Assembly (NCBI GenBank): GCA_964600955.1
Contig: CAZRLV010000001.1
Location: 2,277 to 44,586, forward strand
From: an uncultured bacterium
Lineage (GTDB): Bacteria > Muiribacteriota > UBA6191
Length of the DNA: 42,310 nucleotides
Direction: 5' to 3'
Made by a program: the position numbers and the translations under genes. A model generated the notes under the pieces. That model searched no databases, was not told the origin of the DNA, and was given only the letters and a program-made list of their open reading frames with translations. Position 1 is the stretch's first letter; each line of letters starts with the position of its first letter. This document shows positions 1,666 through 38,054 of the stretch, one piece after another.

Positions 1666-1859
1666 AAATAGCCCTATCTATCTCGTTTTTTCTGGATGCC
1701 TTCGGCGTACAAGCGCACCCAAGTTCGGCATTATAACGCAATTATCCCGGCATTACTTTTTCTAATTCACCACGCATTAATCCTGGTGGGATGTGAAAGT
1801 TTAACTAAATCTTTGGCTCCCGATGACTCCAGTATTCTTAATTGTCGTTGACGAGTGCT

Positions 1860-13808: not shown

Positions 13809-14064
13809 TATCTCCTTATCGCATGCAATTCTACTTGAATTCGTTCACTATTTGTTCTATGATACACATGCCAGCCTAAGAAAAAGCTTGCTGATAGGAA
13901 TCAATTCGGTGTAGCATAATCGAAGCTGGAATAACAACAACTGAAGCGAGCCATCAACGGTGGTCAGGAAACGAGGAAACTGATACTGGAGGTGGCTTTT
14001 TTCTTTCCCCAAAACTTTTACGATTCGGGTCTGTTCCGTTCACAGCTGATGCCTGGAGGTTCCC

Positions 14065-15153
14065 TTGATCAAACCAATTTTTCATTGCCTTTTAATGGGT
14101 CTGTTCATTTCCGCTTCATCTGCCAACGGGTTTCGCGTTGGCCTGGTGAACATCTATTTTTTCGCTGCGCTTTTTGAAGATAATTTGAAAAATCCCCTTT
14201 TCAAGCCGTTAAAAAAGCCGCCATCCACGACGGAGGAAAAAGAGACGGATCGTCTCAGTCTTGAGTATCTGGCGCGTTATGTTCGATATTTGGACGCCGA
14301 TGTTTTGGGAATTTGTGAGGCCCCGTCGCGGGTAGAAGATCTTGAAGCCTTTGTGAAACAGTATTTAAAGGATCAGTACAGGGTGGTTCATAATTCGCCG
14401 GTCATTAAAAACAGAAAATTTTATTTCAACCAGCAGGTGGCCTTTCTTGTACGCCGTGATCGATTTCATCTGCGACGATATGAAGCTTTGCCAGGCGAGA
14501 GGATCCGCCAGCTTAGGCAAAAATATCCATACCCTGAAAAAGAGGTCTACACATTGGATGGAAAAAACCTGGATGTCTGGTGGAGCCGTTTCCCTATTGA
14601 GATGGATTTAGCCCTAAAAGACGACCCAGGTCACTGGTATAAGTTTATCTTAACCTACCCCAAATCAAAATTTGCACGGGGTAAGCAGGCCAAGCGCGAG
14701 GCCCGCATCAAGAACTATGTTCAGCAGCGCATCGTTCGACGTAGACTCGAAGAAATATCCTCTGACTTTGAAGATGTTTTTATCATGGGGGATATGAACG
14801 ATGATTTAGGGATGGGACCTGTAGAGAAAACCCTGGGAATTGATTCCATTCAAGGACTCTATTACGGAGATAAAGATCCCTTGCTTTGGAACCCTTTAAG
14901 CTTTGCAGAGGGTGAAGGCACTTATATTTATAAAGGACATCCAGAGATTATTGATTATATTTTTCTTAGTCATGGGCTGCAAAAAGGGAAGGGAAGGGTA
15001 AGACCCACGGACTATCAGCATTTTCATTTTTATAAGACGATGGTGCGTCAAACCCGCTCGTCAAGACCTGATAGGCTTAGAAATCGAGAGCTTTTTCTTT
15101 CGGATCATGCGCCTCTTACCCTCGATGTGATTCACAAATTTTTCCAAGAGTAA
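14065..15153 (+). CDS. Secreted endonuclease/exonuclease/phosphatase (EEP) family protein
   Basis: TTG start 5 nt after GGAGG (14055..14059). Signal peptide MIKPIFHCLLMGLFISASSANG. EEP motifs are present (DVLGICEA, FIMGDMNDD, IDYIFLS, LSDHAPLTLDV). Confidence 0.8.
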   Translation: MIKPIFHCLLMGLFISASSANGFRVGLVNIYFFAALFEDNLKNPLFKPLKKPPSTTEEKETDRLSLEYLARYVRYLDADVLGICEAPSRVEDLEAFVKQYLKDQYRVVHNSPVIKNRKFYFNQQVAFLVRRDRFHLRRYEALPGERIRQLRQKYPYPEKEVYTLDGKNLDVWWSRFPIEMDLALKDDPGHWYKFILTYPKSKFARGKQAKREARIKNYVQQRIVRRRLEEISSDFEDVFIMGDMNDDLGMGPVEKTLGIDSIQGLYYGDKDPLLWNPLSFAEGEGTYIYKGHPEIIDYIFLSHGLQKGKGRVRPTDYQHFHFYKTMVRQTRSSRPDRLRNRELFLSDHAPLTLDVIHKFFQE

Positions 15154-15347
15154 AAAAGGGTGGATTGGGGTCGAAATAGGGCCTATTTGACCGAATTTGT
15201 ACGTTAATGTCCGTATATTATTAATAATCTCCTCGGATTAGGCTCAAGTCCTCATGGCTTTGATCCGAAAACTATAGTGATTCTCTTATAGGTTTCCTAG
15301 TTTTTTAACTGTGGACCGGTTGAAAACCCAGGATCTTCAAAGAAAAG

Positions 15348-15379
15348 CCTTCAAATTCTGCCCGAATCTGAAGGTTTTT
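15348..15379 (+). terminator. Candidate intrinsic terminator downstream of the EEP gene
   Basis: Stem ccttcaaattc (15348..15358) pairs with gaatctgaagg (15364..15374), 10 of 11 pairs. 5-nt loop, followed by TTTTT (15375..15379). Confidence 0.45.
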
Positions 15380-15461
15380 CTCCTTTACCGAAACCCCATA
15401 ACGAGAATAAAATCATCAGGAGCTTGATCGCTTGATAAATTCCTTTCATACCCCATTAGAT

Positions 15462-15489
15462 TAAAGGTTACGGCTAAATATGCCGATAA
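15462..15489 (+). promoter_or_regulatory. Sigma-28 (FliA) promoter, distal promoter of flagellin paralog 1
   Basis: TAAAGGTT (15462..15469), 12 nt, then GCCGATAA (15482..15489). The enterobacterial consensus is TAAAGTTT-N11-GCCGATAA. The spacing matches the promoter of paralog 2. It lies about 630 nt upstream of the ATG at 16122. Confidence 0.7.
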
Positions 15490-15700
15490 CCAAGAAGAGG
15501 ACCCAAAGTCCAACCAAAAAAATAATCTAACTTAGGTTGCTTTGGGCTGAATCGAGTGGATTATTCAAGATAATCCGATCTAATCGCACCTAACCCACCG
15601 CAAACAGCTTCATGTCTTTGCCGATCTTGGTCGATACTGATGGAGACATCGTAAAAGGATTCGGAAGTTTCTACTTCCGGAGCCCAGGTGACACTGCAAT

Positions 15701-15712
15701 TGGCCCACAGTC
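15701..15712 (-). repeat. Copy 1 of the flagellin-spacer motif (core GACTGTGGGCCA read on the minus strand)
   Basis: Exact 12-mer tggcccacagtc on the plus strand. It is shared with 16027..16038 and 38075..38086, and as the reverse complement with 19001..19012. Confidence 0.8.
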
Positions 15713-15740
15713 GCAGGTTTAATACCTGAGTTTAGCCCAT

Positions 15741-15780
15741 CAAGGATGATAGGGCAGGAAGCATCAAGGAGGATGATATG
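15741..15780 (+). promoter_or_regulatory. Duplicated flagellin-leader module (two GGA sites, SD and ATG) heading only a 53-codon ORF
   Basis: caaggatgatagggcaggaagcatcaaggaggatgatATG aligns by eye with the genuine leader caaggatggcaggcaaaaatccatcaaggaggatttaaaaATG at 16082..16124. Confidence 0.45.
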
Positions 15781-16025
15781 ATTTTTTTCACAGCGGGATT
15801 TTCACCGCATTTTAACGCTTCACCCCCCTCAAATAGCCTAGTTGGCTATTGCTGGGATGCTCCAGCCCGTCTTGGGTTTTGGGGATCTATCAGAGAACTG
15901 ATTATCCTAGCATTTCCGTCTCGTCACGCACCCGAATAAAGGCTGTCGGTGACGGGGCGGAGGTGCCCCCAAGGTAGATCGTTTTTGAGGTCTAGTCCTT
16001 AAATCGAATCCGGCGTTTTGTAAAT

Positions 16026-16040
16026 CTGGCCCACAGTCAA
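16026..16040 (-). repeat. Copy 2 of the flagellin-spacer motif (TTGACTGTGGGCCAG on the minus strand)
   Basis: ctggcccacagtcaa on the plus strand. This 15-mer is identical, in reverse complement, to the cores of the 18973..19035 and 38055..38113 elements. Confidence 0.8.
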
Positions 16041-16080
16041 CCTCACGCCGGGGAAAATAACTTGGAATAAACGAATGCCG

Positions 16081-16121
16081 CCAAGGATGGCAGGCAAAAA
16101 TCCATCAAGGAGGATTTAAAA
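16081..16121 (+). promoter_or_regulatory. Flagellin 1 leader: two GGA motifs, SD inside a hairpin (CsrA-type translational operator candidate)
   Basis: AAGGATGG at 16083..16090. Hairpin AAATCC (16098..16103) / GGATTT (16112..16117) with loop ATCAAGGA. The SD AAGGAGGA (16107..16114) sits 7 nt before the ATG. Confidence 0.5.
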
Positions 16122-18800
16122 ATGGAAGGTTTTAGAATAAATAGTAATATTGCGGCCCTGAGTACTAACTCACATCTGAGAAAAGCTCAGGGTGGATTAG
16201 GGCAGTCGATCGAGAGACTCTCCTCGGGACTTAAGATCAATAGGGCTGCTGATGACGCAGCAGGACTCACAGTTTCAGAGAAATTGCGAGGACAGATTAT
16301 TGGTTTAAACCGTGGGATTCAAAATGCCCAGGACGGAATTTCCCTGATTCAGACGGCAGAAGGTGCCCTCAATGAGGATCACGCCGTGTTGAACCGCATG
16401 AGAGAACTCTCAGTTCAGGCTCAGTCTGATGCTTTGACTTCAGGCGATCGTCTGGAGTTGCAAAAAGAAGTCGATCAAATGGTCGGCGAGATTGATCGCA
16501 TCTCTGACACCACTGAATTTAACACCAAGAAAATGCTAGACGGGAGTATGTCCGGTCTGGTGAGTACAGATCATAATGACCTCACTGCCTATCAGAACGG
16601 TGGTGCTGTGGCGGAAGGCGATTTTACGGTCGCGATTTCAAAAACGGCAAGTGGTACAAGGCAGGTTCAAAATTCTGCAATCCAAAGAGATGCAAATAGC
16701 GGGAATGTAGCGGGCCTTTCCACTACGCTCAGAGATCTTGAGAGCATGACTGATAGTGATGGAAACGGGAGTCTTGCTAGCGCACAGACTCTGACCTTAA
16801 GAGCTAACGGTTTTACGGCTGAAGTCACCATGACTTCCGATCAAACTCTCCAGGAGTTTACCTCCAAGGTTGAGACTGCTATTACCAAAACTGAGGATGA
16901 TGGGGGTCTGGGTCTTGAAGGTTCAACTTTTGCTTTTAATGCGAGCTCTGGACAGTTCATCTACGAGGCTGGAAAAGATGGCAGTCGGGGGGATCTTTCT
17001 TTTGGAGGAGATGAAGATATCCTACAGGCGATAGGTATGCAGGTTACGGTAGAGTCAGAAGATTCTGCGTTTAGTGTGACCTCCACGCAGGTGGGTGTAG
17101 CCTCTCCCCAGACGGTTACTGAAACGACGAGCAGTGGTCGTGCTTCAGGTGTCATTGGTGGCTTGGATCTTGAGTTTGAACTGGCCTCCGAGGCTCGCCA
17201 TGATGGAAGTGTTGCGGCCACGGACTCCATTACCATCGCTGCTACTGATGTAGTGTTTACTTTTCATGATACGAATGGTGCTGACATTGGGCAGACGGAT
17301 GGAAACATCAGTGCCGGGGTGACGATTACTCTGACACAGAGCCGCACCTATACCACAGCATCAATTTCTACCATGATTAACAACGCGGTAGCAGCATCGA
17401 ATGATCCTACCAGCGCACTGACACCAACAAGTGCCTCCACAACATCCTTTAAAGATCCAGGTATTACCGCCAGTTTCGATGGCTATAACCTCAAACTGAC
17501 CTCCTCTGACACCGGAACGTCGGCAGAGATTTCCATCGCTGGGAATCAGGCGGCGCAAGATATCATGGGAATTGTGGATGGAAAGACGACAGGTAGCGCG
17601 GGAGTTACCGCCGCTCTGGTCGGTTCAGTGGATATCTCTGGTGGGGTCACGATCAACGGAACCGGAACCTTGCGGTTGCGAGTCGGTGACGGGGATTTCA
17701 ATACCAACACGGGTAATACGGCAGGATCTCGTTCTCTCGGGGTTGCAGCTGGAGGAGACATTTCCTTTAACCGAGGAGTGGCTATTTCTTCAACTTCTGT
17801 TGTAGATACCTTCAACTCCTATTTCACGACCAACAACATGGATGCAGTAGCCAGCATGGCTGCCGATGGAAAACTGGAGATCCGCTCCATCGAGACAGGT
17901 ACTGATGCCAAGCTTTCTATCACTGGAAATGCTCCAGCCACGGATTCCATGGCTAATCTCGGATTTACTTCGGGTCAGACCGACCTTGGAGAAGATGGAA
18001 ATGCTGCGGTATTTACTTGAAATACTGCTGACTCGCAAGAGACCCAGGGTTTTACTCTGTCGGGACATTTGGATTTCAATGTCACCGATAGAAACGGTGC
18101 CACGACTACGACGATTTCCTTTGACGCATCCGGTGTCAGTACGAACGAGTCGTTTACCATTTCAAAAGAGACAGTGACCTCGGTCATTAACTCGAGTAAC
18201 CTGAGCACTACCGATGTTGAATTTAGTATCGATGCCGGTAATCGACTAGACTTCTCTTCGAAGTCTGCCGGTGAAGGTTCCAGGGTTGTGCTTTCTACCA
18301 ATAACAATGGTACGATGCAAACCCGTGCCAGCACCAGTTTTGGTCTGGATATGGAAAGCTCGGCACAGGGTGCCGGCAAGACTGATTTCAACGTCCATGT
18401 TACTGACAAGACATTGAATTTTGAGGTAGGCGCGAACCAGAAGCAATTCCAGAGCTTTCAGGTTCGAAATGCCAGTGCAGACTCTCTGGGTCTGCGAGGC
18501 GTTGATGTCACTAATATCTCGGCTGCCACTAAGGCTCTTGGAAAAATCGATGACGCTATTCAGGCGGTATCGAGCGAGAGAGCCAAACTGGGAGCCATGC
18601 AGAACCGCTTGAATTCAACAGTGAATAGCACCACTGTAACCCATACAAATGCCTCGGCTTTTGAATCGTCCATTCGAGACGTGGATCTTGCCAAGGAAAC
18701 GGTGGAATTCACTCGAAATCAGATCCTGACACAGGCAGGTACGGCTCAGTTATCCCAGACCAAGGCCCTAAATCAAGGAGGTCTACAACTCTTAGGATAG
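16122..18800 (+). pseudogene. fliC: Giant flagellin paralog 1: one 893-codon frame interrupted by a single in-frame TGA (18018..18020)
   Basis: Track ORFs 16122..18020 and 18069..18800 are in the same frame. 18021..18068 has no further stop. The N-terminal D0/D1 region (MEGFRINSNIAALS...LSSGLKINRAADDAAGL...ISLIQTAEGAL) is in the first ORF. The C-terminal D1/D0 region (KLGAMQNRLNSTV...IRDVDLAKETVEFTRNQILTQAGTAQLSQ) is in the second. It is collinear with the intact 879-aa paralog. Confidence 0.85.
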
Positions 18801-18862: not shown

Positions 18863-18972
18863 AGGTAGATAAAGCCGTAAATGGAAGGTAATCAAAAATA
18901 ATTCAAGTTAAACAAAGATAAACAAGGGGGATCAAGCTGGATGAGATCTGGAATTATTCCGAAGTATAGATA

Positions 18973-19035
18973 GAATTCTCCTGAAGGTTTCCAAGTTTTT
19001 GACTGTGGGCCAGTTTTAGACCGAAGAATCTTCCA
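18973..19035 (+). repeat. 63-bp element (left inverted repeat) containing motif copy 3
   Basis: gaattctcctgaaggtttccaagtttttgactgtgggccagttttagaccgaagaatcttcca. By hand alignment about 55 of 63 positions are identical to the reverse complement of 38055..38113. Confidence 0.8.
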
Positions 19036-19046
19036 AATTCACAAAA

Positions 19047-19080
19047 GACCTCTAAATTTCTCAAATTTAGGGGTCTTTTT
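19047..19080. terminator. Bidirectional hairpin terminator at the 3' end of the GT-B gene
   Basis: gacctctaaattt (19047..19059) pairs with aaatttaggggtc (19063..19075), one G-U pair and a 3-nt loop. TTTTT follows on the plus strand and TTTTGTGAATTT on the minus strand. Confidence 0.6.
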
Positions 19081-19089
19081 ATTTCTTCC

Positions 19090-20238
19090 TCAGGTGGCTT
19101 CCTGGAAAATCTTTTTTTCAAATCTGCGCGCAACGGCAGGATATGACATAAGGTCTTGAAAAAAACCATGGGACTCAAGGGCTAAATCGAGTCTTTTCTC
19201 TTTGGATGCGAGCAATAGATTTTCGAGAGCCTGGGAAAGAACAGAAGGGATTGCTTGGGTATTAATAATTGGGAAACGCGCCTTCAGCTCGGTACTGCCG
19301 CATTGCAGTTCCAAATCTCTCTCACTGATATTTTGAATCGAACTCAAGACTATGTTACCGAGAGATAATGCCTCGACGGAGCTAATTCCATATCCACCCA
19401 CTTCGGAGCTAAATTGGTCAATATGGATATGAGACTTCTTTTTTAGTTCGATTATGCGTGCATTAGGCACCGGAGGATTGACTTCTTCATAGCTCAGCTT
19501 GAGTGAGGTCTTGGGAGTGACTCTTTCAAACACTTCGCGAACCACGTTACGAATGATCTCCGTACCCTTGACTGAGTGAGAGGACGGGGTATGCGAAATT
19601 CGAATTTCATCCAAACTAAATTTTTGGTGAATCGATTCTTCTACCTTATCGGCGCTTAATGGGGCCTGGTAAGCACAGACGGGAACCAGATATTGCGGGG
19701 TGCCGGGGCAGAGGCGATATAGATCGACTCCCATCAAGACTTTGTCAAAATATCGCAGGTCCAGTTGGTCGAACTGGTGGTGAGCCACTCGGTAATCAAT
19801 TCCGCAATGGTGGATATATAGCTTGAGTTTAGGGTTGGCCAGTTTAAGCTCTAGCAAACAGAAGTTTAGAATTTTTCGAAGATATCCCAGGGTTTGGTAT
19901 CGCAATGGTTTTTTTTCCAACTGGATTTCTTCAGCAAGCACGATATGGCTAGAGCCTAAGAGCCATTCAATGGCTTTATCGCGCCCCTCCACATTAATGA
20001 GATACTCGCCTCCCCCCGCCTCTGGGGGAAAGGTTAAGTCAATATCATGGGATAAACCATAGGAAAAATGGTGAGGTCTGATACAGATACTTCGAGATTC
20101 CAGTCCTTCTGAGAACTGATCAATGGCACGGGACCAGTTTGTCATCGAATTCCCATAGTCAGTGAAAGCGATGAAACAGACTTTTTTCTTAGGAAATGTG
20201 GACACTTTGGTCTGCGATGTTTTAGGTTTGATTCCCAC
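19090..20238 (-). CDS. GT-B fold (GT1/GT4-like) glycosyltransferase
   Basis: 382 aa. The C-terminal half carries the pattern of retaining GT-B enzymes (ISHTPSSHSVKGTEII ... HIDQFSSEVGGYGISSVEALSLGNIVLSS). The track start is GTG without an obvious SD, so the start is uncertain. TGA stop. Confidence 0.55.
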   Translation of the reverse strand: MGIKPKTSQTKVSTFPKKKVCFIAFTDYGNSMTNWSRAIDQFSEGLESRSICIRPHHFSYGLSHDIDLTFPPEAGGGEYLINVEGRDKAIEWLLGSSHIVLAEEIQLEKKPLRYQTLGYLRKILNFCLLELKLANPKLKLYIHHCGIDYRVAHHQFDQLDLRYFDKVLMGVDLYRLCPGTPQYLVPVCAYQAPLSADKVEESIHQKFSLDEIRISHTPSSHSVKGTEIIRNVVREVFERVTPKTSLKLSYEEVNPPVPNARIIELKKKSHIHIDQFSSEVGGYGISSVEALSLGNIVLSSIQNISERDLELQCGSTELKARFPIINTQAIPSVLSQALENLLLASKEKRLDLALESHGFFQDLMSYPAVARRFEKKIFQEAT

Positions 20239-20312
20239 TGGAACCAGCTATTTTTTAGAGTTTTAAAGGTATGCTATCTTAGGCGGGAAGCGAAGTCAAA
20301 CCGGATTAGTTG

Positions 20313-20999
20313 ATGATGAAGCCAGCCATTAAGAAAACCGTCAAACGTGTATCCGAACTTTACGACGAGAATACCAAGACTCATGGGGTGGGTGCTCGCA
20401 GTGTGGGTTGGCATTCACAAAAAGATCATGCTCTAAGGTTTGAGAAACTCTGTGAAGTCATCAAATTTAACGAGGGTGGAACCATCACCGTTAATGATCT
20501 GGGCTGTGGCTATGGAGCCCTATGCACCTATCTTATGGACCAGACTGAGGTCAAGATTGAGAAATATTCAGGCTACGATGTTTCTAAAGCTATGCTGCAA
20601 CTTGCCAGAGAGGAATTAGACCTTGGGGTCTGTTCTTTGAATCTAAGTGACAGCATTCTTGAGGAGGCCGATTATTCTTTTGCAAGCGGAACTTTCAATG
20701 TTTGTTTTGATGCGGATCGATCTGCTTGGAGAGCGCATATAGAGGCATCCTTAAGGAATCTACACCATTACTCCAGGAAGGGAATGGCTTTTAATTTACT
20801 GTCCACCTACGTGGATTGGAAAGCCCCCGATCTTTATTATGGGGACCCCCTGTATTTTTTCGATTTTTGTAAGAGGAATTTATCAACTTCGGTGACTCTG
20901 ATTCATGACTATCCCCTGTACGAGTGGACAATATTGGTGGGATCAGCCTCCAATTTGAATGATGGTTCGCATGGGAGTGTAGCGGGAGGTTCGGACTGA
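20313..20999 (+). CDS. Class I SAM-dependent methyltransferase
   Basis: Motif I VNDLGCGYGAL. About 228 aa. The first ATG (20313) is taken rather than the track TTG at 20310. The 3' end overlaps the convergent gene by 57 nt. Confidence 0.7.
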   Translation: MMKPAIKKTVKRVSELYDENTKTHGVGARSVGWHSQKDHALRFEKLCEVIKFNEGGTITVNDLGCGYGALCTYLMDQTEVKIEKYSGYDVSKAMLQLAREELDLGVCSLNLSDSILEEADYSFASGTFNVCFDADRSAWRAHIEASLRNLHHYSRKGMAFNLLSTYVDWKAPDLYYGDPLYFFDFCKRNLSTSVTLIHDYPLYEWTILVGSASNLNDGSHGSVAGGSD

Positions 21000-21716
21000 G
21001 AAATTTTGTTCTCGGAAAACCTCTTTGAAAGCCAGCGCTTCTCCCGGAGATTCTGACCAGGTAAATTCGTCTAGCAGCAGCACACTTCCAGGAAGTAAAT
21101 GAGGCTTTATGGCTTCAAGGGCAGCTTTGGTGGGCTCATAGAGTCCCAGGTCAAAATATGCCAGTGCCACAACGGTTTCCGGGTGCGAACGGAAAAACTC
21201 GGGAACCGTGGATCGTACGTCACCCTGAATTAGCTCATGGTTCCCCTTCATATGTCCTAAAACATTACATTCTTCATGAACCTCAAGAAGTTTTTCGAGA
21301 GTTTTGAGGTAGCTCTCAGGTGTTAGATAATCGTTCTCAGTTAGAAAGCCATTTTGCTTGTCTTTTCCTGAAAAGCCTTTATATCCGTCAAATGAGTCAA
21401 AGCCAATGATTTTACGAGTTTTGTTAAATGGCTCATAAATGGCTCGAAGATTTTCAAAAAGAACCATGTTTTGGCCGTACCAGACCCCAAATTCCAAAAT
21501 GGCTCCCGGCTGATTTTTGATCAGTTCATAAAGTTCATTCAGAACCAAAATCTTAACTAACGCTGAACCCCGTGTAAACAAACCAAGGTTACAAAGTAAG
21601 TCGTCCGTGGGGATATTGTTATCTTTATATAATTTTTTGAGTTGTTCCCTGGCTTCTAATTGACCCTTACTTGAGTTGGACTCAAGTAAGTTGGATGGGT
21701 TGTCTTTTTGATGCAT
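20943..21716 (-). CDS. TylF/MycF-like (macrocin-type) O-methyltransferase
   Basis: Track ORF 20943..21818. I prefer the ATG at 21716 (MHQKDN...), preceded by GGGGAG at about 5 nt, giving 257 aa. Family pattern: ILEFGVWYGQNM, IIGFDSFDGY, ALAYFDLGLYEPT. Confidence 0.65.
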   Translation of the reverse strand: MHQKDNPSNLLESNSSKGQLEAREQLKKLYKDNNIPTDDLLCNLGLFTRGSALVKILVLNELYELIKNQPGAILEFGVWYGQNMVLFENLRAIYEPFNKTRKIIGFDSFDGYKGFSGKDKQNGFLTENDYLTPESYLKTLEKLLEVHEECNVLGHMKGNHELIQGDVRSTVPEFFRSHPETVVALAYFDLGLYEPTKAALEAIKPHLLPGSVLLLDEFTWSESPGEALAFKEVFREQNFSVRTSRYTPMRTIIQIGG

Positions 21717-22659
21717 ATGTCTCCCCGGGAGCGCGAGAGGCTTCAGATGAAACTGCCAATCCAAAGCCATATTTTCCGTGTTCGTTACCATTGTAGAATA
21801 AATACTGCGAGCCTTCATAGCGAATCACATGTGGATAACAACTCATTTTGCTGTCTGAACCATCTGGGGCCGGAGGTAACCCGAGTTTTTCATTTTGACG
21901 TTTAAAGACCAGCCCATCGTTTGACTCTGCATATCCAATACGATAGCCCTTACCCAGGGCGGGGGTTGCAAAGCAATACCACATTTGGAAAAAATCTTCT
22001 TCATTTAATACCGTGGGTTTCCCAAGGTTCGACTCTGTGGAGTCCTTGAAATCAAGAATGACCCTTCCCTCGCGTTGCCAGTGGATTCCATCCTTGGATA
22101 GAGCTAGCTTAATATTATAGCGGGAGTAGTAACATCCGTCGATGAGTTGCCAGGAAACCCCCGATACGTAATACATTCTAAACCCATCCCCATGGCGAAT
22201 TACGTGCGGAGCCGTTACCAGGCACGGGTCGAATGGGCTTCGTTCCAGGATTGGGCAATCATGCATACGCTGGAAGCTCATTCCACCATCTTGACTTAAA
22301 GCCAGTCCGATGGAGGCATAAAACAGGTGGGGGCTTTGGCCGCGTGTATATCCGATGTAATAAAGGTAGAGCTTATCATTCACCTCCAGGACGCAGGATG
22401 GATAAACCCCATGTTGGTCAAAATGTCCGGGTTTACCTGGAGTTAGAACGGGCTTGGAATCTACTTCCAGCACCCGCAAGGACTTTAAATCAAAATCCAG
22501 GCAGCCAACGCTGGCGACCTTGTTTTTGTCCCGAGTCGAAAAGAGAACTCTGGGGTGGGATTCACCTCCAGGAATTACCACAGGTGATTGGGCATGGGTC
22601 TGCATCCAGGAGTTCTGGCCTTGCACTGCAAAGACAAGTCCCAAATTTTTCCATTCCAT
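21682..22659 (-). CDS. Beta-propeller protein of the GH32/43/130-like superfamily (function unknown)
   Basis: 325 aa. Repeated blade-like strands with aromatic/Gly patterns (LYLYYIGY, FRMYYVSG, FQMWYCF, YLFYNGN). No signal peptide. The family assignment is from pattern memory and needs profile search. Confidence 0.45.
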   Translation of the reverse strand: MEWKNLGLVFAVQGQNSWMQTHAQSPVVIPGGESHPRVLFSTRDKNKVASVGCLDFDLKSLRVLEVDSKPVLTPGKPGHFDQHGVYPSCVLEVNDKLYLYYIGYTRGQSPHLFYASIGLALSQDGGMSFQRMHDCPILERSPFDPCLVTAPHVIRHGDGFRMYYVSGVSWQLIDGCYYSRYNIKLALSKDGIHWQREGRVILDFKDSTESNLGKPTVLNEEDFFQMWYCFATPALGKGYRIGYAESNDGLVFKRQNEKLGLPPAPDGSDSKMSCYPHVIRYEGSQYLFYNGNEHGKYGFGLAVSSEASRAPGETYASKRQPIQLT

Positions 22660-22673
22660 GATAGATGATTCGT

Positions 22674-23345
22674 TTACTCGAAATATTTAGCTGTTGTTTC
22701 TTTTCGTGGACAGGTTCTTTCGGAAATAAAGAGTTCTCTGGGACCTGCCGATTTCATGATTAATGAACCGGCCCCAATTAGGCATTCATCACCAATTTCA
22801 ATACTATCTCTCAAGGTCGCGTTGACTCCAATCATACATTTTTCACCGACCGTGCAATTTCCGGATATCACCACATGCGAAGTGATAAATGTATGATCTC
22901 CAATCTTGGAATGATGGCCGATGTGGTTACCGCTCCAGAGGACCACATTATTCCCGATTTGGGCGAAAGGTTGCAGGGTGTTGTTCTCAAAAATGAAGGT
23001 ATTATCTCCGATTTTGTTCGTAGACCACAGCCGTACCCCAGGGTAGATATAGGATACGAGTTCATAACCTTTGCTTTTGGCTTCTTCGTAAAACTTGGCT
23101 CGGACATGATTTAGACGTGCATAGCCGATGGCTACAAACATTTTCGTTGCGTGTGGCGGAAATCTGGATTCTACATTTTCAAAGGATACGACCTCAAGTC
23201 CTAGAAACTCGCGAGAATCCCTTTGTTCCAAATAGGCCTTGGATTCACAAAATCCAACGACTTCAAAATCACTGGCTTCGCTAAAATAAGCATATACAAC
23301 CTCGGCAAAGAGATTGGTGCCGACAAGAACAATTTTTTCAGTCAT
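22674..23345 (-). CDS. NeuD/PglD-family sugar N/O-acyltransferase (hexapeptide repeat)
   Basis: N-terminal Rossmann-like KIVLVGTNLFAEVVYAYF, followed by a left-handed beta-helix with hexapeptide repeats (IGNNVVLWSGNHIGHHSKIGDHTFITSHVVISGNCTVGEKCMIGVNATL). Confidence 0.75.
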   Translation of the reverse strand: MTEKIVLVGTNLFAEVVYAYFSEASDFEVVGFCESKAYLEQRDSREFLGLEVVSFENVESRFPPHATKMFVAIGYARLNHVRAKFYEEAKSKGYELVSYIYPGVRLWSTNKIGDNTFIFENNTLQPFAQIGNNVVLWSGNHIGHHSKIGDHTFITSHVVISGNCTVGEKCMIGVNATLRDSIEIGDECLIGAGSLIMKSAGPRELFISERTCPRKETTAKYFE

Positions 23346-23348
23346 GAT

Positions 23349-24404
23349 TTATCTCCCTGGCAACAAGCGATCAAACGGAACAGCAAAGAAGTTGGGGAAC
23401 TCTTGAAGGATTTCTGAGCGAGTGAACTCCAGGATTGAAGTCTCAAGGACTTGAGTGTAATAGATGTAGGGGTGATCCTGTGCTCCCCATCGCTTTTTAA
23501 AATCATAGACTCCGGTCTGGTCATCCCAGGTTCCACCCCAGTTCCAATATTTGAATCCTTTTGATATGGCATTCTTCATCGCTTCAATCAAAGCCAAACT
23601 TAAGGGTTGGCAATTTCGAAACTCGGGGTCCAGTGCGGGGGTAAAATATTCGACAGTCTGATTGAAATAAAAAAGCAGAACAGCGGCTACCATACGATTA
23701 TCGATCTCAGCCAGATAAAGAACATAGTCATCTTTGGCGTAGATTTCAGGGATGGTTCTAAAAAACTCCCAGGACTTTGGAATTCCTCCCAGGTCATTTA
23801 GATTGGCCCTATGCAATAGATAAAGTTTACGCAGGTCCTCAAGACTCTGAGATTTTCGGATGGTGACACCGCTCTTTTTTGCCTTGCGAATATTTCTGGA
23901 GCGGCATTTGCTAAAAGATGCGATCAATAGGCTGAGAGCTTCATCCGATGACTGGGGGAGGGGGGTAATCTGGCCTGTGCGGGCTGTTTGGAAGGTAATA
24001 GGGGTAAAGTCACCATAGTTTATGTTCATGGCACTAAATGGAGAGGAAACAAGGGTAGCGCTCAGGCATTTCTTTTCTCTGGCAAATGAAAAGAACCCGG
24101 CAATGAGTTTCTCACGTATTTCGGGGCTTCCATGGTGTTCGATACAGCCTCCGTGACTCCCGTAAAACGGGAGGGAATTCAGGACATTGCCATAGCGAGT
24201 ATTTTGTTTGAGAAATGTAGGCAGGACTCCCATGATTTTTTTATCTACGTAAACGCATAGGTAGTGGTCGGTTGCCTTGAGTACGCGCTTTAGATGCAGT
24301 CGATAAACATTGGAGGCATAAAGTTGGGTCCATGGAGAGCGCAGAAGGAAGTCGTTGTATTGGTCGAGGTCCTCCGGTTCCAGTTTTTTCAGTTCAAGAG
24401 TCAT
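23349..24404 (-). CDS. FemAB / Acetyltransf_6 (GNAT-fold) family protein
   Basis: Track ORF 23349..24539. The internal ATG at 24404 (MTLELKKLEPEDL...) limits the overlap with the upstream gene to 11 nt. Family-like region: YVLYLAEIDNRMVAAVLLFYFNQTVEYFTPALDPEFRNCQPLSLALIEAMKNAISKGFKYWNWGGT...YDFKKRWGA. Confidence 0.6.
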   Translation of the reverse strand: MTLELKKLEPEDLDQYNDFLLRSPWTQLYASNVYRLHLKRVLKATDHYLCVYVDKKIMGVLPTFLKQNTRYGNVLNSLPFYGSHGGCIEHHGSPEIREKLIAGFFSFAREKKCLSATLVSSPFSAMNINYGDFTPITFQTARTGQITPLPQSSDEALSLLIASFSKCRSRNIRKAKKSGVTIRKSQSLEDLRKLYLLHRANLNDLGGIPKSWEFFRTIPEIYAKDDYVLYLAEIDNRMVAAVLLFYFNQTVEYFTPALDPEFRNCQPLSLALIEAMKNAISKGFKYWNWGGTWDDQTGVYDFKKRWGAQDHPYIYYTQVLETSILEFTRSEILQEFPNFFAVPFDRLLPGR

Positions 24405-26418
24405 GTTTAGGTTTAGACATAAAAAAACTATGGTACCACTCCTCAAAGGAAAGCAGTGACCAGATGAGCAGGCGATGATTAATGCCTTGCGAGTGCTCTT
24501 TAATGGTTTTTTCGATAAAGTCCTTGTTGAGGAACTCAAGACAGACCGCTGATTTTGCTAATAATCGATCTTTAACGTATTGGAAATTTTCGCCGCGGTA
24601 CCAACTCTCGTCCGGCGCTGAAAACCCTTGTTTACTTCTTCGGGTTATTCTCTCGGGCAATAATCCCTGCATGGCATGCCGTAAAACATTTTTTCCGTCA
24701 TCATGACTTTGGTAATAGGCACTTTGCTTTCTCAAAATATTTTCATCCATGCGGGTTTGCTGTTCCAGGTTTCTTATTTTATGTCGAATAGGAATTTTCA
24801 TGGCAAAGTCCACAAGATCATTATCTAGGAAGGGGAATCTCTCTTCAATCGATGAGGCCATCGAGAGCTTGTCGCCGACTATGAACAGCCCATGTAAAAA
24901 CGTCTTGATTTCAAAATAAAGAGAATTTGCAAGATGATCCTCAGGGGAGTCGTAGTTAAGGTTTTCATTAAAGCGGAAGACTTTTTTAAAGATCTCATAG
25001 GGTCGGTCAATCGAGATATTTTTGAGGGTTTCAGGTTTAAACAGTCTGAGCCTGTCCTGACCTTTCACCAATCTCTGCCAAAACCCATAATAATGTGAAT
25101 AAAACTCTTCGCGGTCAGTGGGATTCAATTCACGGTAATAGCGCCAAGGATAGCCTGCATAGAGTTCATCACCTCCCACACCTGTAAGTACGATCGTTAC
25201 AAATTTAGAAGCCAGTTTGCTGATATAGTAATTTGGATAACTCATGCCTACGCGCAGGTCCTCCATATGCCAGATCACTTTAGGGAGAGCCCATGATATG
25301 TCTCCGGCATTGATAACCTGTTCAAAATGCTGGGTTTTAAATTCATTGGCTACAATCTCGGCTGCGAGTCGTTCATCAAAGCTAGCCTCAACACCCGTTA
25401 CCTGAGACAGCTCAAAACCTGCTGTAAAGGTGCTCATACGCTCTAATTGCTGGCTTGCAACGGCAACAACTGCACCGCTATCGATTCCTCCACTCAAATA
25501 GGAACCGATGGGAACATCGGCCACGCATTGGCGTTTCACTGCCTGATGAAAGAGGCGCAGAGTTTCTTCACTGGCCTCGCTAAAGGAAATATTTTCATCA
25601 CTCTGTGTAAAATCATAATCCCAGAAACAAGTTTTTTGAAACCTGTTCTGGAAGTCAATCTGAGCTATATTGGCAGGAGGTAGGAGAAAAACCCCCTCGA
25701 ACAGAGTCTCGAACTGAAATAGGTTTTGAAACGTGAAATACTCATTCAGGGCTTCATAGTTTAGCTTTCGTGCAAGATCCGGGTAGCATAATAGAGATTT
25801 GATCTCGCTGGCAAAAAGAAACAAGTCTCCGCATTGAGCATAGTACAAAGGTTTGATTCCATATCGATCTCTTGCCAGATACAGGGTTTGTTTGGGACTA
25901 TCGAAAAGGGCAAAGGCAAACATGCCATTGAAACGTTTCACACAGTCTATGCCCCATTCCATATAAGCCAATAAAACCACTTCGGTATCAGAGCGGGATC
26001 TGAATTCATATCCGAAACCTTCAAGCTCCTGTCTTAATTTAATGTGGTTGTAGATTTCTCCGTTGAAAACCAGCCAAAAGTTTCCCGATCGGTCCTGCAT
26101 GGGTTGATGGGCCGCCGCACTGAGATCAAGAATGGATAATCGGCGATGTCCAAGAAATAGATTCCAATGGTCTCCTTGCAGAGCGGTTCGTCCCTCCGGC
26201 GAGTCTATGACAGGAAGTCTGGGTGAAATTGAGGAAAATTCAGAGTCAGTGAATTCCAAATCGTAAGAAGACATTTTACCTGCCAGAGGACCTGTACGAG
26301 CGACTAAATATCCAGCGTCATCTGGGCCTCGATGGGAGATGCTGTCGCACATGGTCTTGAGAAAATTTGACTTCAGGATCTGACCATTGGCGGCCAAAAC
26401 TCCAACTATTCCGCACAC
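24394..26418 (-). CDS. asnB: Asparagine synthase (glutamine-hydrolysing)-like amidotransferase
   Basis: 674 aa. N-terminal nucleophile MCGIVG, Ntn glutaminase domain, then the PP-loop SGGIDS (YLSGGIDSGAVV) of the synthetase domain. Confidence 0.85.
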   Translation of the reverse strand: MCGIVGVLAANGQILKSNFLKTMCDSISHRGPDDAGYLVARTGPLAGKMSSYDLEFTDSEFSSISPRLPVIDSPEGRTALQGDHWNLFLGHRRLSILDLSAAAHQPMQDRSGNFWLVFNGEIYNHIKLRQELEGFGYEFRSRSDTEVVLLAYMEWGIDCVKRFNGMFAFALFDSPKQTLYLARDRYGIKPLYYAQCGDLFLFASEIKSLLCYPDLARKLNYEALNEYFTFQNLFQFETLFEGVFLLPPANIAQIDFQNRFQKTCFWDYDFTQSDENISFSEASEETLRLFHQAVKRQCVADVPIGSYLSGGIDSGAVVAVASQQLERMSTFTAGFELSQVTGVEASFDERLAAEIVANEFKTQHFEQVINAGDISWALPKVIWHMEDLRVGMSYPNYYISKLASKFVTIVLTGVGGDELYAGYPWRYYRELNPTDREEFYSHYYGFWQRLVKGQDRLRLFKPETLKNISIDRPYEIFKKVFRFNENLNYDSPEDHLANSLYFEIKTFLHGLFIVGDKLSMASSIEERFPFLDNDLVDFAMKIPIRHKIRNLEQQTRMDENILRKQSAYYQSHDDGKNVLRHAMQGLLPERITRRSKQGFSAPDESWYRGENFQYVKDRLLAKSAVCLEFLNKDFIEKTIKEHSQGINHRLLIWSLLSFEEWYHSFFMSKPKHDS

Positions 26419-27596
26419 TGGAAGAGTTCCTCCATGACATAATTGAACTCGGAATCCGTCATTTGAGGGTAGACAGGTAGCGCAATGCTAAGTTGGTCGG
26501 CAGCCAAGGACTGAAGATAGTCCTCAGGGTTTATACCATATTTTTGCCGATAGTATTTCAAGGTATGAACCGCATGGGTTCCCTGTCGCGTGGCTATTCC
26601 CTTGTGCGCAAGTCTGAACATGAACTGATTGCGCAGTCGATTCAATTTTTCAATTTTGGACAGATTCAATTCTGCGAAATCTTCACCGCCCGTATAGAGG
26701 CAGACATAAGACTGATAGCTATGTACATATTCCTGTGGAGTGACCGGTGTCTTGAGGTGTGGGTGAGAACCTAAGGCAGCGTCATAGTTTCGGGCAATTT
26801 TGCGGCGTCCGTGAAGTATCTTCTGGGCTTTCTCAAGCTGAGTCACGCCCAGAGATGCCTGGATATCCGTCATGCGGTAATTAAATCCCCGAAGCTCAAA
26901 TTCAGGCAAGAGGCTTCCTTGCCTGGACTGGTGTCGATCCAGGTCTGAGACCGCAGCTCCATGACTTCGCAACTGATTGACCTTCTCAATTAGACTGGAG
27001 TCTTCTGTAATGAGCATTCCCCCTTCACCAGTGGTTATGGCTTTGCGGGGATGAAAAGAAAAGCAGCCAAGATCACCAAAGGTTCCAGAATGTCTGTCTC
27101 CAATCCAGCTGTCAAATCCGCAAGCCGAATCTTCAAGAATTCTGAATTCATATTTTCTACGTAGATCCAGAATCGCCGGAAGGTTGGAGCAAAGACCAAA
27201 AAGGTTGACTGGCATGACGGCCTTGATTCTGTTCTGGGTGTCCTTTTCCAAGATTTCTTCGAGTTTCGTCGTATCCAGGTTGAAATCCTGTAGGCGGATA
27301 TCACAAAAGATGACTTTTGCTCCCGTATACTCAACTGCGTTTTGAGAGGCTACATAGGTGAAGGATGGCACAACCACCTGGTCTCCCTCACCAATCCCCA
27401 GAGCAGTTAAACCCAGGTGAAGGGCGCTGGTACAGCTGGAGCAAGCGCTCGAAAATGAGGCTCCTGTAAATTGGCTAAAACGCGATTCAAACTCTTTGAC
27501 CCAAGGTCCCTGAACCAACCAGCCAGTGTCCAGGGGGCGTAAAACAGCCTCGCGGTCTTTGGAATCAAGAACTGTCTTGGTAATGGGTATCTTCAT
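26406..27596 (-). CDS. DegT/DnrJ/EryC1/StrS-family PLP sugar aminotransferase
   Basis: 396 aa. Has SCTSALHLGL and the PLP-lysine region CFSFHPRKAITTGEGGML. 4-nt overlap with the upstream gene. Confidence 0.85.
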   Translation of the reverse strand: MKIPITKTVLDSKDREAVLRPLDTGWLVQGPWVKEFESRFSQFTGASFSSACSSCTSALHLGLTALGIGEGDQVVVPSFTYVASQNAVEYTGAKVIFCDIRLQDFNLDTTKLEEILEKDTQNRIKAVMPVNLFGLCSNLPAILDLRRKYEFRILEDSACGFDSWIGDRHSGTFGDLGCFSFHPRKAITTGEGGMLITEDSSLIEKVNQLRSHGAAVSDLDRHQSRQGSLLPEFELRGFNYRMTDIQASLGVTQLEKAQKILHGRRKIARNYDAALGSHPHLKTPVTPQEYVHSYQSYVCLYTGGEDFAELNLSKIEKLNRLRNQFMFRLAHKGIATRQGTHAVHTLKYYRQKYGINPEDYLQSLAADQLSIALPVYPQMTDSEFNYVMEELFQCAE

Positions 27597-28561
27597 TGTT
27601 TGTGATTTCTGCGCCAGTCTATGAGTTTTCTAAGTCCATTTTGAAGTTCAAGATCATAATTAAAATTGATTTCCTTCGAGGCTTTCTTTGGGTTTCCAAT
27701 TCGATTAGTGACAAAGACTTCGGGAGCGGGCTCATACTGGATCGTAGCTGTGCTATCTGTCAGCTCAAGAATGAGTTTAACCAGCTCATTGATTGAGGTC
27801 TGTACTCCTGAACCAATATTATAAAACTCATTGCTGGCTTCGGATTTAAGGGCGCAGACATTGGCTCGGGCAGCGTCAGAGACATAAATGAAATCAAAGG
27901 CTTGTGAACCGTCTCCGTGAACAATAGGGGGTAATCCCTGCTCCAGACGATCCAGGATTTTCATGATGACCGCAATATACGCTCCTTTATAGTCCTGTCG
28001 GGCCCCATAGACATTCATATAGCGCAATCCGCAGTAGTTTAGACCATAGCGGTGAAAAAAGGATTTACATAGATGTTCGCCGGCTATTTTTGTGGCTCCA
28101 TAGAATGTCTTATTATTATAGATATGATCCTCTGACATTGGAATTTCCACGGCATCACCATAGACCGAAGCCGAAGAGGAATAAATAAGTTTTTTAACCC
28201 CATGTTTAACACAGGCCTCAAGCACATTGAATGTTCCCTCAATATTGACATGAAAAGCGCTGCGGGGATAGTCGTGGCAGTGCAGCAGCCATAGAGCTGC
28301 CAGGTGCACCACAAAATCACATCCTTTGACGGCTTCATCCAGAATGTCGGTGTGAAGGATATCCCCTCCTAGTTCGAAAACTCGAACACGGTCATCCTTT
28401 AGGGCATGTGAAAGGTTCTCTCTTGTACCTCGGGAGAAATTGTCATAGACAATAATTTGGTCAAAATCTTCTTGGATTAACTCATCTACAACATGAGACC
28501 CAATGAATCCGCCCCCCCCAATAACCAAGACTTTGCAACCTCGAAAATCCCAGGGTTTCAT
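27593..28561 (-). CDS. SDR-family NAD-dependent nucleotide-sugar epimerase/dehydratase
   Basis: VLVIGGGGFIGSHVV (GxxGxxG), the YGATK catalytic YxxxK, 322 aa. The glycine motif is encoded by a G8 run (plus-strand C8, 28512..28519). Confidence 0.85.
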   Translation of the reverse strand: MKPWDFRGCKVLVIGGGGFIGSHVVDELIQEDFDQIIVYDNFSRGTRENLSHALKDDRVRVFELGGDILHTDILDEAVKGCDFVVHLAALWLLHCHDYPRSAFHVNIEGTFNVLEACVKHGVKKLIYSSSASVYGDAVEIPMSEDHIYNNKTFYGATKIAGEHLCKSFFHRYGLNYCGLRYMNVYGARQDYKGAYIAVIMKILDRLEQGLPPIVHGDGSQAFDFIYVSDAARANVCALKSEASNEFYNIGSGVQTSINELVKLILELTDSTATIQYEPAPEVFVTNRIGNPKKASKEINFNYDLELQNGLRKLIDWRRNHKQ

Positions 28562-29697
28562 GTGAGGCTCCTTTCATTAAAAAATTCCTGGATAGCCTGA
28601 ATAATGCTGCTCTGATGACTCTCGGACAAAAACGCACTCATAGGCAAGGATAGGACTTCATAACACAGCTTTTTTGCACGCGGAAAGAATGCGGATCTTA
28701 ATGGACTTTTAAACACGGGTTGTTCGGGCAGAGGTTTGGGGTAGTGTACGGCTGTTGGGATTCCCAGACTAGACAAATGCTCCCTAAGTTGATCCCGCAA
28801 TGGGGTTCGACACGTAAACTGAGCCCATACTGAAGATTGGTCGGGCTCAAGTTCTGGCAAACCCAGGGCCTCCAGCGACTCCAAACCATCAAAATAGCGT
28901 AAAGCGACTCTTTGCCTTTGGGTAACTTCTTGAGGGAAATAACGCAATTTGACGAGAAGAATGGCGGCTTGTACTGAATCCAGGCGGCTATTCATGCCCG
29001 CCATAACATGGGTGTAGGTTCTGGATTCTCCTTGAGCTTTTGGGGGTAGTTCACCATGGGATTTTACCAATCTCAACTTCGCTGCAGTCTCATCCCTGTT
29101 GCAAAATACGGCGCCACCGTCACCAAAACAACCCAGAGGCTTTGAAGGGAAAAAACTGGTTGCGGCCAACTGGGTCTGACCCCCGCTGAAGCCATCACGA
29201 TTTCGTGCCCCCAGGCTCTGGGCTGCGTCTTCGATCACCACCAGATCATGAGTCTTAGCCACTCTTGATATATTTCGTAGATTACAGGTTTGGCCAAATA
29301 GGGAAACAGCCAGTATGGCTCGAGTCCGGCTGGTGATCACTCCTTCTAGAAGGTTTGGATCCAGTCCGAAACTCTTTTCTTCGACATCAACAAATACAGG
29401 GATAGCCCCAGAGAGTAGAACAACTTCAGCCGTCGCTATAAAACTGAAGGCGGGAACAATGACTTCATCACCAAGTTCCAAATCCAGAGCTTTGAGGCAA
29501 AGGAGCAGGGCATCGGTACCGCTTGCGCAGGTTACGCAGTGTTCGGTCCCGACAAATTCGCCCAATTGGGTTTCCAATTCACCGACCCAGGGGCCGTTAA
29601 TGAACCTTCCAGAATCCAGAACTTCCTCTATGGCTTTGTTAAAGTCTGCACGGTAGGCTTGAATTTGCGCATCAAGATCGGAGAAGGGAATTTTCAT
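28558..29697 (-). CDS. wbpE: WbpE/WlbC-like DegT aminotransferase (3-oxo-sugar transaminase type)
   Basis: 379 aa. The PLP-lysine region SFFPSKPLGCFGDGGAVF closely recalls WbpE-type enzymes. It sits directly downstream of the WbpB-like and WbpD-like genes. Confidence 0.7.
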   Translation of the reverse strand: MKIPFSDLDAQIQAYRADFNKAIEEVLDSGRFINGPWVGELETQLGEFVGTEHCVTCASGTDALLLCLKALDLELGDEVIVPAFSFIATAEVVLLSGAIPVFVDVEEKSFGLDPNLLEGVITSRTRAILAVSLFGQTCNLRNISRVAKTHDLVVIEDAAQSLGARNRDGFSGGQTQLAATSFFPSKPLGCFGDGGAVFCNRDETAAKLRLVKSHGELPPKAQGESRTYTHVMAGMNSRLDSVQAAILLVKLRYFPQEVTQRQRVALRYFDGLESLEALGLPELEPDQSSVWAQFTCRTPLRDQLREHLSSLGIPTAVHYPKPLPEQPVFKSPLRSAFFPRAKKLCYEVLSLPMSAFLSESHQSSIIQAIQEFFNERSLT

Positions 29698-30278: not shown

Positions 30279-30291
30279 AGTTTGGAATTAC

Positions 30292-31248: not shown

Positions 31249-31265
31249 AGGAGGTCTGTCAGGTC

Positions 31266-32897: not shown

Positions 32898-32909
32898 AAG
32901 AATCTCCTT

Positions 32910-34699: not shown

Positions 34700-34748
34700 G
34701 ATCTTGCAAAGTGAATATACTACAGGATTGTAAAGATTGGAGGATGTG

Positions 34749-35126: not shown

Positions 35127-35130
35127 AAAC

Positions 35131-37938: not shown

Positions 37939-37966
37939 GTATCGGCAAAATTGGGACAAAACTTTA
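37939..37966 (-). promoter_or_regulatory. Sigma-28 (FliA) promoter of flagellin paralog 2
   Basis: The minus strand reads TAAAGTTT (37966..37959), 12 nt, then GCCGATAC (37946..37939). A T8 tract lies just upstream. The leader is about 160 nt. Confidence 0.75.
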
Positions 37967-38054
37967 GAGTGATTTGAAAAAAAACAGAAATTTTTTGCTG
38001 GAGGGTCAAGGAGGGGAGAGTTCCCGAATCCAAGATCCGGGAACTCTCTCTCTA

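Follow-up and report, generated by a model that had tools for sequence, protein, structure and literature searches.

Why does a short sequence motif recur in the spacers around flagellin genes in the genome of an uncultured bacterium, and what does it do there? We addressed this question in a stretch of 42,310 nucleotides (nt) from a member of the Muiribacteriota (lineage UBA6191), analysed at its full length and referred to here as the window. The motif, a 12-mer (TGGCCCACAGTC), occurs at 15701, 16027 and 38075 on the forward strand and at 19001 on the reverse strand, that is, four times against zero expected from 100 dinucleotide-preserving shuffles. Our analyses indicate that the motif family probably represents sigma-28-dependent antisense small RNAs that pair with the leaders of flagellin mRNAs.

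The positions given for these four copies in the original prediction were all recovered. As it had claimed, three of them share a 15-mer, TTGACTGTGGGCCAG (hereafter M), at 16026-16040 (-), 18999-19013 (+) and 38074-38088 (-), and the dyad ACTG-N5-CAGT is exact in the copies at 19001 and 38075, with a single mismatch in each of those at 15701 and 16027. The distances that it stated are correct for the flagellin-1 ATG (16122), the flagellin-2 sigma-28 promoter and the flagellin-1 terminator alike, and no credible gene holds a copy, the only overlaps being with the mechanical open reading frames (ORFs) 18954-19178 and 37858-38088. Confinement to flagellin spacers was upheld, and the count was incomplete: a fifth, diverged copy is located at 15305-15319. 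Two stem substitutions in this copy preserve the pairing of a hairpin (U-A to U.G; G.U to A-U), and the centre of its loop has A in place of G.

The window copies split into two classes. Those at 15305, 19001 and 38075 each form the core of a longer repeat, about 100 nt in size; these repeats are the small RNA-like elements A, B and C, and all three are in the forward (M) orientation. The copies at 15700-15714 and 16026-16040 are short sites in the leader of flagellin 1 and are the reverse complement (M'), opposite in orientation to the three long elements. The long elements and the promoters near them are as follows.

15264..15271, forward strand: -10-like sigma-28 element of copy A, TCCGAAAA.
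15279..15381, forward strand: copy A (covariance-model score 83.3 bits, E 4e-17; fold z-score -3.8), with 5' tail GAUUCUCUUAUA, hairpin 1 with loop UGGAC, and a terminator hairpin at 15348-15374 followed by a T-run.
15305-15319, forward strand: the fifth motif copy, with the A-type seed TTAACTGTGGACCGG, about 150 nt upstream of the flagellin-1 sigma-28 promoter.
15461..15489, forward strand: flagellin-1 sigma-28 promoter, TTAAAG-N15-GCCGATAA, laid out as in related loci.
18958..18965, forward strand: -10-like sigma-28 element of copy B, TCCGAAGT (ACCGAAGA in the positional orthologue of locus L056).
18974..19084, forward strand: copy B (80 bits; fold z-score -3.1), with its seed at 18999-19013, loop UGGGC, and a terminator at 19043-19079 followed by a T-run.
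37939..37967, reverse strand: flagellin-2 sigma-28 promoter, CTAAAG-N15-GCCGATAC.
38112-38014, reverse strand: copy C (79.6 bits; fold z-score -3.4), with its seed at 38088-38074, loop UGGGC, and a second hairpin without a T-run.
38129-38122, reverse strand: -10-like element of copy C, ACCGAATA.

The predicted unit is about 95-110 nt long. It consists of a pyrimidine-rich single-stranded 5' tail (GAUUCUCUUU or AAUUCUCCUGA), a long imperfect hairpin (hairpin 1) and a second, terminator-type hairpin, and M forms the apical stem and loop of hairpin 1 (UUGACUG-UGGGC-CAGUU). Among the 12 members of the family that we identified in the window and in related DNA, all have a sigma-28 -10 CGA (motif match) 13-16 nt before a conserved 5' end, (G/A)ATTCTC. 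Half of them (6/12: the C'-type copies and the A-type copy of L056) have the canonical -10 (G/T)CCGATAA, and four have TTAATGT-N14-(G/T)CCGATAA, with the spacing exactly that of the flagellin promoters in the same loci. A T-run follows the second hairpin in 11 of the 12. A sigma-28-type promoter, a hairpin and a terminator hairpin together are the expected features of a small RNA gene of about 100 nt under the control of the flagellar sigma factor.

Other roles were considered for the motif or the unit. As a sigma-54 promoter, TGGCCC-N5-CAA does not fit GG-N10-GC on inspection; as a sigma-70 promoter (TTGACT as the -35 element), there is no consistent -10 and the spacing is altered by indels between copies. 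A role as a CsrA sponge was also rejected: GGA is missing from copy B, and its only recurrent occurrences across the family are AGGAUC, in the lower stem of hairpin 1, and the A-type loop UGGAC. Copy C (38014-38050, reverse strand) has CCCCTCC in place of the T-run, which is normal in its equivalents in L010 and L031. Lacking the T-run, transcription from copy C may continue towards the flagellin-2 promoter region.

To define the family, we used contigs encoding homologous flagellins and exact-word scans of public collections, and scanned 418 kb of DNA with a covariance model (R1) built from the 12 copies. These distinct units come from at least five related uncultured lineages, and all of them are located in flagellin spacers. 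True copies scored 78-106 bits with R1, and everything else in the 418 kb scored at most 22 bits, including about 30 unrelated loci with a chance exact 17-mer; the window contains exactly three copies. The five copies found first share one two-hairpin fold (z-scores -2.2 to -3.8). In an alignment of 10 sequences, 93.8% of the consensus-structure cells pair and two-sided changes affect 10 pairs, 9 of which are among the 11 pairs of the second (terminator) hairpin; the observed covariation score was reached by none of 500 shuffles.

The motif is kept in related genomes. A seed of 17-19 nt is identical across lineages whose orthologous flagellins are about 65% identical as proteins and whose flanking spacers are divergent, and within each variant type there is no variation across a core of 13-19 nt. 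Positions are conserved as well: the seed of copy A is identical in the orthologous copies of L053 and L056, at the same place after an Exo_endo_phos gene, and the position of copy C, between a GT2 gene and the flagellin promoter, is also occupied in L010 and L031. No Rfam 15 family matched the window at its gathering threshold. The sub-threshold matches (trpB motif, 27.9 bits, threshold 59; rimP leader, 25.4 bits, threshold 47) differ from copy to copy and are therefore attributed to chance.

A multicopy element with hairpins, whose copy number and positions vary between lineages, could also be a selfish dispersed repeat, similar to repetitive extragenic palindromic (REP) sequences or miniature inverted-repeat transposable elements (MITEs), that we happened to sample in flagellin spacers; one copy indeed lies beside an IS21 insertion (L055). 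However, its distribution makes this extremely unlikely. The exact 19-mer core had three matches among 185,579 species representatives, of which one is real and is located at the flagellin locus of the only related genome (L010); the other two, one in a conserved coding sequence and one in Sphingobacterium, are not at flagellin loci. The exact 17-mer had 35 matches in a collection of metagenome contigs without those of the source. The two real ones are at flagellin loci of the lineage and the rest are chance matches, mostly unlike the element, and exact-word scans are thus too strict to map the family. With R1, the non-flagellin DNA of the related loci (about 60 kb) proved to be free of copies, compared with the 12 distinct copies in flagellin spacers. 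The units have neither terminal inverted repeats nor target-site duplications, and an invariant core within diverged flanks is the reverse of what recent transposition would leave. As far as tested, the motif is not the dispersed genome-wide repeat against which the original prediction had cautioned.

The two remaining copies in the window are within the flagellin-1 leader, which is about 630 nt long and driven by sigma-28. The leader is composed of two similar modules, each with an M' site, one or more GGA hairpins, a Shine-Dalgarno region (CAUCAAGGAGGAU) and an ATG.

15700..15714, forward strand: M'1 of module 1, TTGGCCCACAGTCGC, complementary to the loop and stem of the B/C-type small RNAs, 65 nt before the ATG of the small ORF.
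15741..15774, forward strand: GGA hairpin and Shine-Dalgarno of module 1, CAAGGAUG...AUCAAGGAGGAU, a direct repeat (D12) with 16082-16115, conserved in orthologous leaders.
15778..15939, forward strand: small upstream ORF of module 1 (ATG at 15778), 53 codons, MIFFTAGFSPH..., with a ribosome-binding region that copies that of the flagellin (CAUCAAGGAGGAUG).
16026-16040, forward strand: M'2 of module 2, CTGGCCCACAGTCAA, displayed in the loop of leader hairpin 16009..16052 (predicted fold).
16078..16119, forward strand: two GGA hairpins of module 2, the second of which holds the flagellin-1 Shine-Dalgarno AAGGAGGA (16107-16114).
16122..18800, forward strand: flagellin 1 (ATG at 16122), the presumed target, 892 codons, with Pfam Flagellin_N and Flagellin_C, of the 'MEGFRIN' clade.

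This leader design is shared by orthologues of the 'MEGFRIN' clade in L007, L053 (two genes), L054 and L056 (two genes), and in a weaker form in L010. The sites are on the mRNA sense strand, always as the reverse complement, in flagellin-1-clade leaders of at least five lineages. Their spacing is also maintained: M'1 is 64-68 nt from the ATG of the small ORF (8 leaders), M'2 is 74-83 nt from the flagellin ATG (133 nt in L007), and the two are separated by 326-342 nt. An invariant block, CTGG[G/C]CCACAGTC, is found in 7 of the 8 aligned leaders, which are otherwise variable; the L010 site has diverged. The stems that enclose M'2 are lineage-specific in sequence in the same eight-leader alignment. 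The original prediction had listed an RNA element in the flagellin-1 leader among its candidate roles, and this was the right direction for the two leader copies; the three further copies are at the apex of small RNA-like units.

In the orthologous leaders examined, the M' sites are upstream of GGA (CsrA-type) hairpins. Those at 16078-16119 (GCCGCC-AAGGAU-GGCAGGC and AAAUCC-AUCAAGGA-GGAUUU) follow a pattern kept in the 7 complete leaders aligned. By analogy, GGA hairpins with one placed over the Shine-Dalgarno would correspond to the pattern of CsrA-controlled flagellin leaders in Bacillus subtilis and Campylobacter jejuni. Eight leaders, drawn from five lineages, share the upstream-ORF N-terminus MLF(N/Y)L..FSPP, and neither the remainder nor the length (20-53 residues) is conserved. 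This ORF may encode a regulatory leader peptide, for example one acting by proline stalling.

No M' site was found in the flagellin-2 and flagellin-3 leaders or in a second flagellin array of the same sample (L050), which has no motif copy at all, and no copy is present between the flagellin-2 promoter and start codon even with 2-3 mismatches. The motif therefore marks one flagellin clade and the small RNA genes, and not flagellin spacers in general. Target sites are not strictly confined to the flagellin-1 clade, because the leader of a flagellin-3 orthologue in L010 (4815-4830, reverse strand) has a motif-like sequence, CUGGGCCACAGG, in a hairpin loop 75 nt before the ATG; the source's own flagellin-3 leader (L001 1-197) has no motif-like site. 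We also observed orphan leader modules. One is in L053 (about 13900-14200, reverse strand), where two small RNA copies have between them, on the opposite strand, a module 1 with its complementary site and GGA hairpin, and another is in L054 (658-800, forward strand). They suggest past rearrangements or deletions of cassettes.

These positions bear on the explanation that the original prediction preferred, an operator read near flagellin promoters by a dimeric DNA-binding protein of a flagellin-specific type. The dyad does exist, and copies A and C are 107-150 nt upstream of sigma-28 flagellin promoters. Its arms are only 4 bp, however. In the leader, the copies come about 210 and 540 nt after the flagellin-1 promoter, in every case as M' on the sense strand of the mRNA, and no gene lies ahead of copy B. 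Conservation is asymmetric and reaches into a unit of promoter, hairpin and terminator. It is hard to fit the three central-base variants found in the single locus L053 to one protein, and the L050 array and the flagellin-2 and flagellin-3 leaders contain no copy. We therefore give an operator very little weight.

Pairing between the small RNAs and the leaders is predicted from their sequences. Copy B and M'2 (16026-16040) are perfectly complementary over 15 nt, and for M'1 in L053 and L056 the complementarity to the small RNA apex stretches to about 22 nt with one bulge. The small RNAs fall into three types by the centre of the loop.

A-type, loop UGGAC: copy A of the window, L053 and L056, always between an Exo_endo_phos gene and a flagellin.
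B-type, loop UGGGC: copies B and C of the window, L007, L010 and L056.
C'-type, loop UGGCC: L053 (two copies), L054 and L055/L056.

In four loci, the variant of the leader site matches the small RNA of the same locus. G-type sites occur with B-type small RNAs in the source (copies B and C) and in L056, and C-type sites occur with C'-type small RNAs in L053 (P44) and L054. Both sites of a leader are of the same variant in four of the five two-site leaders, and all three loop-centre variants coexist in one locus, L053. The duplex energies of matched pairs are -35 to -45 kcal/mol, compared with shuffled means of about -25. Furthermore, all 12 copies have a 5' tail with complementarity to the Shine-Dalgarno region CAAGGAGGAU across 7-11 bp (9-11 bp in most), and this complementarity exceeds that of about 95% of shuffled tails for most copies (range about 83-100%).

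Matched central bases would also suit recombination. If the copies were DNA inversion sites, a recombinase could flip the flagellin-1 promoter or leader, the flagellin-1 gene or the 19-kb segment from 19001 to 38075, resulting in phase or antigenic variation. Invertible switches of this kind are known for flagella: in Salmonella hin/hix and in the Clostridioides difficile flgB switch, short inverted repeats flank a flagellar promoter or leader. In the window, opposed copies flank the flagellin-1 promoter (15305 versus 15701 and 16027), the flagellin-1 gene (16027 versus 19001) and the glycosylation island together with flagellin 2 (19001 versus 38075), and in L053 one orphan leader module is inverted. 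Unlike in those switches, no recombinase domain was detected in the larger ORFs of the window (two Pfam scans and precomputed domains) or in the related loci, apart from the IS21 transposase of L055; a recombinase encoded at a distance is conceivable. Every copy lies in a collinear stretch, in a single orientation, when the window is compared with four assemblies of the source population that come from different samples (99.86-100% identity). In about 30 copies examined, the flanks are purely of the small RNA type or purely of the leader type, with no chimeras. The shared core is just 12-16 bp, the arms of the DNA dyad are 4 bp, and the promoter and terminator around the forward copies would be left unexplained. 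We consider inversion, and with it the recombinase target that the original prediction had offered as another candidate role, to be very unlikely.

The anatomy of the genes, their conservation, the complementarity and the positions of the sites are established at the sequence level, and they suggest how regulation by the small RNAs could proceed. Sigma-28 would transcribe both the flagellin-1 unit and the small RNAs. The apex of a small RNA may dock on the hairpin loops of the M' sites, and this loop-loop contact would set the specificity before being converted into a duplex of 15-22 bp at the M' sites. The 5' tail could then pair with the nearby Shine-Dalgarno region, which also resembles a CsrA site, and the predicted outcome is less translation of the upstream ORF and flagellin 1. 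Because sigma-28 would drive both partners, we propose a feed-forward circuit in which the small RNAs brake or tune one clade of the many flagellin paralogs. Repression is our guess from the anti-Shine-Dalgarno tail and from precedent, and an activating or mRNA-stabilising role is possible too.

A further, rather doubtful extension is that the three loops (UGGAC, UGGGC and UGGCC) act as an address code. The small RNA of each cassette would read only complementary leaders, through a kissing-loop anchor and an anti-Shine-Dalgarno tail competing with CsrA and the ribosome, so that one cassette could silence or license others in an array of at least six giant flagellins. If true, this would be an RNA-based system for choosing the composition of the filament.

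The most serious alternative is that the hairpins act without pairing. The units of about 100 nt would then be real RNAs or cis-acting RNA structures that function alone, as protein sites or decoys, stabilisers or attenuators, and the complementarity of the leaders would be a by-product of inverted duplication. The motif is in a hairpin in both contexts, and the M'1 sites resemble the inverted upper hairpin of the small RNA over about 22 nt, suggesting an origin by duplication. The A-type copy has no matching site, and a flagellin promoter in the same orientation follows closely after several of the copies. All of the evidence for pairing is comparative and comes from copies related by descent. 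Nevertheless, the loops differ between the two contexts (UGGGC versus GCCCA), and a single RNA-binding protein with sequence specificity would not recognise both. Within variable flanks, the complementary core does not change and is kept at a fixed distance to two start codons, and the loop-centre variants match between the partners in four loci. We regard action without pairing as improbable.

Several observations weigh against small RNAs that pair with flagellin leaders. Window copies A, B and C have a degenerate -35 and the -10 variants CCGAAAA, CCGAAGT and CCGAATA, and copy C is the one family member without the T-run. The strand favoured by the folding energy of hairpin 1 relative to its complement differs between copies, so the strand assignment depends on the promoter and terminator. 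Hairpin 1 is largely invariant or has one-sided changes, with a two-sided change in a single pair, and its structure is consequently backed more by conservation than by covariation. For the A-type seed, no target site with up to 3 mismatches was found in the DNA searched, and for two leaders (L007_4 in L007 and P27 in L053) no matching small RNA was found in the region examined. The element is absent upstream of the next-closest flagellin-2 orthologues, at 63-64% identity (L047-L049). Common descent of the copies means that neither the orientation counts nor the variant matches are independent of one another, and gene conversion could contribute to the matching. The M' sites are 40-70 nt from the Shine-Dalgarno, which makes an effect on translation conjectural. 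Finally, we infer the expression of the RNA, its pairing in vivo and the direction of repression, and the RNA and its ends are predictions. Taking both sides together, we still favour sigma-28-dependent antisense small RNAs as the probable identity of the motif family.

The flagellin genes around these elements are unusual. In addition to flagellin 1, the window contains two others.

35131-37770, reverse strand: flagellin 2.
39645-42225, reverse strand: flagellin 3, broken by a frameshift near 40855-40904, with a stop at 39792 ahead of the Flagellin_C segment.

We regard flagellin 3 as a probable pseudogene; the same split is found in assembly L001, and a relative has an intact orthologue of 872 residues (P0021). 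Flagellin 1 has an in-frame TGA at 18018-18020, where L006, from the same population, has GGA and an intact 892-codon gene. The window and L006 differ at 5 positions in 15,320 bases, and the TGA reflects either a nonsense variant or an error in sequencing. The flagellins of this lineage are exceptionally large, at about 870-920 residues, and occur in arrays (window 16122-18800 and 35131-37770; L007 6646-22091; L050 3590-12691). The source sample has at least six such paralogs, and L007 has five consecutive ones.

Flagellins 1 and 2 are separated by a sugar-biosynthesis island. A sugar-modification block of about 12 kb (19090-31266) is absent in L053, in L054 and in a 61,867-nt contig from the closest relative (flagellin-2 identity 91%). 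In the relatives without the block, the flagellin directly abuts an aldehyde dehydrogenase gene, and small RNA copy B is at the edge of the insertion. In L055, genes for an IS21-type transposase and the IstB helper (1173-3520) adjoin a small RNA copy (1011-914, reverse strand). The lineage is deep and uncultured; its nearest named relatives by PheS are 66% identical and carry the NCBI label 'Ca. Cloacimonetes'.

If confirmed, these elements would make up a new small RNA family of this deep uncultured lineage, one without an Rfam counterpart. Regulation of flagellin mRNAs through sigma-28-dependent small RNAs, which has been worked out in Escherichia coli, Campylobacter and Vibrio, would then have arisen far beyond the proteobacteria and Campylobacter. 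The matched variants of seed and leader would provide a simple model of how a cell adjusts its choice among many giant flagellin paralogs. For annotation, three spacers of the window gain a proposed function, and the leader of about 630 nt becomes a two-module control region with a small upstream ORF.

The proposed loop-loop contact can be compared with CopA/CopT and RNA I/RNA II, in which kissing loops initiate a duplex that can spread into the stems, the antisense RNA being encoded in cis, opposite its target. As in those pairs, complementary sequences are in hairpin loops on both partners here, according to the predicted folds. Unlike in them, the partners are encoded apart and the mRNA loops are large (13-30 nt).

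Small RNAs that depend on the flagellar sigma factor are known from several bacteria. In E. coli, the sigma-28-dependent UhpU, MotR, FliX and FlgO modulate flagellin level and the number of flagella; all four are derived from untranslated regions (UTRs), FliX from the 3' UTR of a flagellin gene, and are Hfq-dependent, and MotR and FliX act within coding sequences of ribosomal protein mRNAs (PMC10578931). The small RNAs proposed here would likewise be under the flagellar sigma factor, but they have no Rfam match. In C. jejuni, CJnc170 (FlmR) and the paralogs CjNC1 and CjNC4 depend on FliA (sigma-28), and 5' UTRs of flagellar genes are the predicted targets of the paralogous copies; the genes targeted are sigma-54-dependent (PMC11187230, PMC4626219). 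Flagellin mRNA in that species is also under CsrA/FliW control (PMC4894983). Unlike for the C. jejuni RNAs, the target predicted here is a sigma-28 flagellin leader and the seed is in a hairpin loop with matched variants; neither lineage nor sequence is related to theirs.

[quoted passage not shown] FlaX is processed from the flaA 3' UTR and associated with ProQ, and it blocks 30S binding and alters filament composition (PMC11879080). Like FlaX, copy B is located just downstream of a flagellin gene, and the presumed target leader has several sites. Unlike FlaX, the units described here seem to have sigma-28 promoters of their own, are multicopy with seed variants and carry the seed in a hairpin loop; they share no sequence similarity with FlaX and are predicted from sequence. 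The functional class, sigma-28-dependent flagellar small RNAs, is thus a known one, and the family in this lineage shares its logic and not its sequence.

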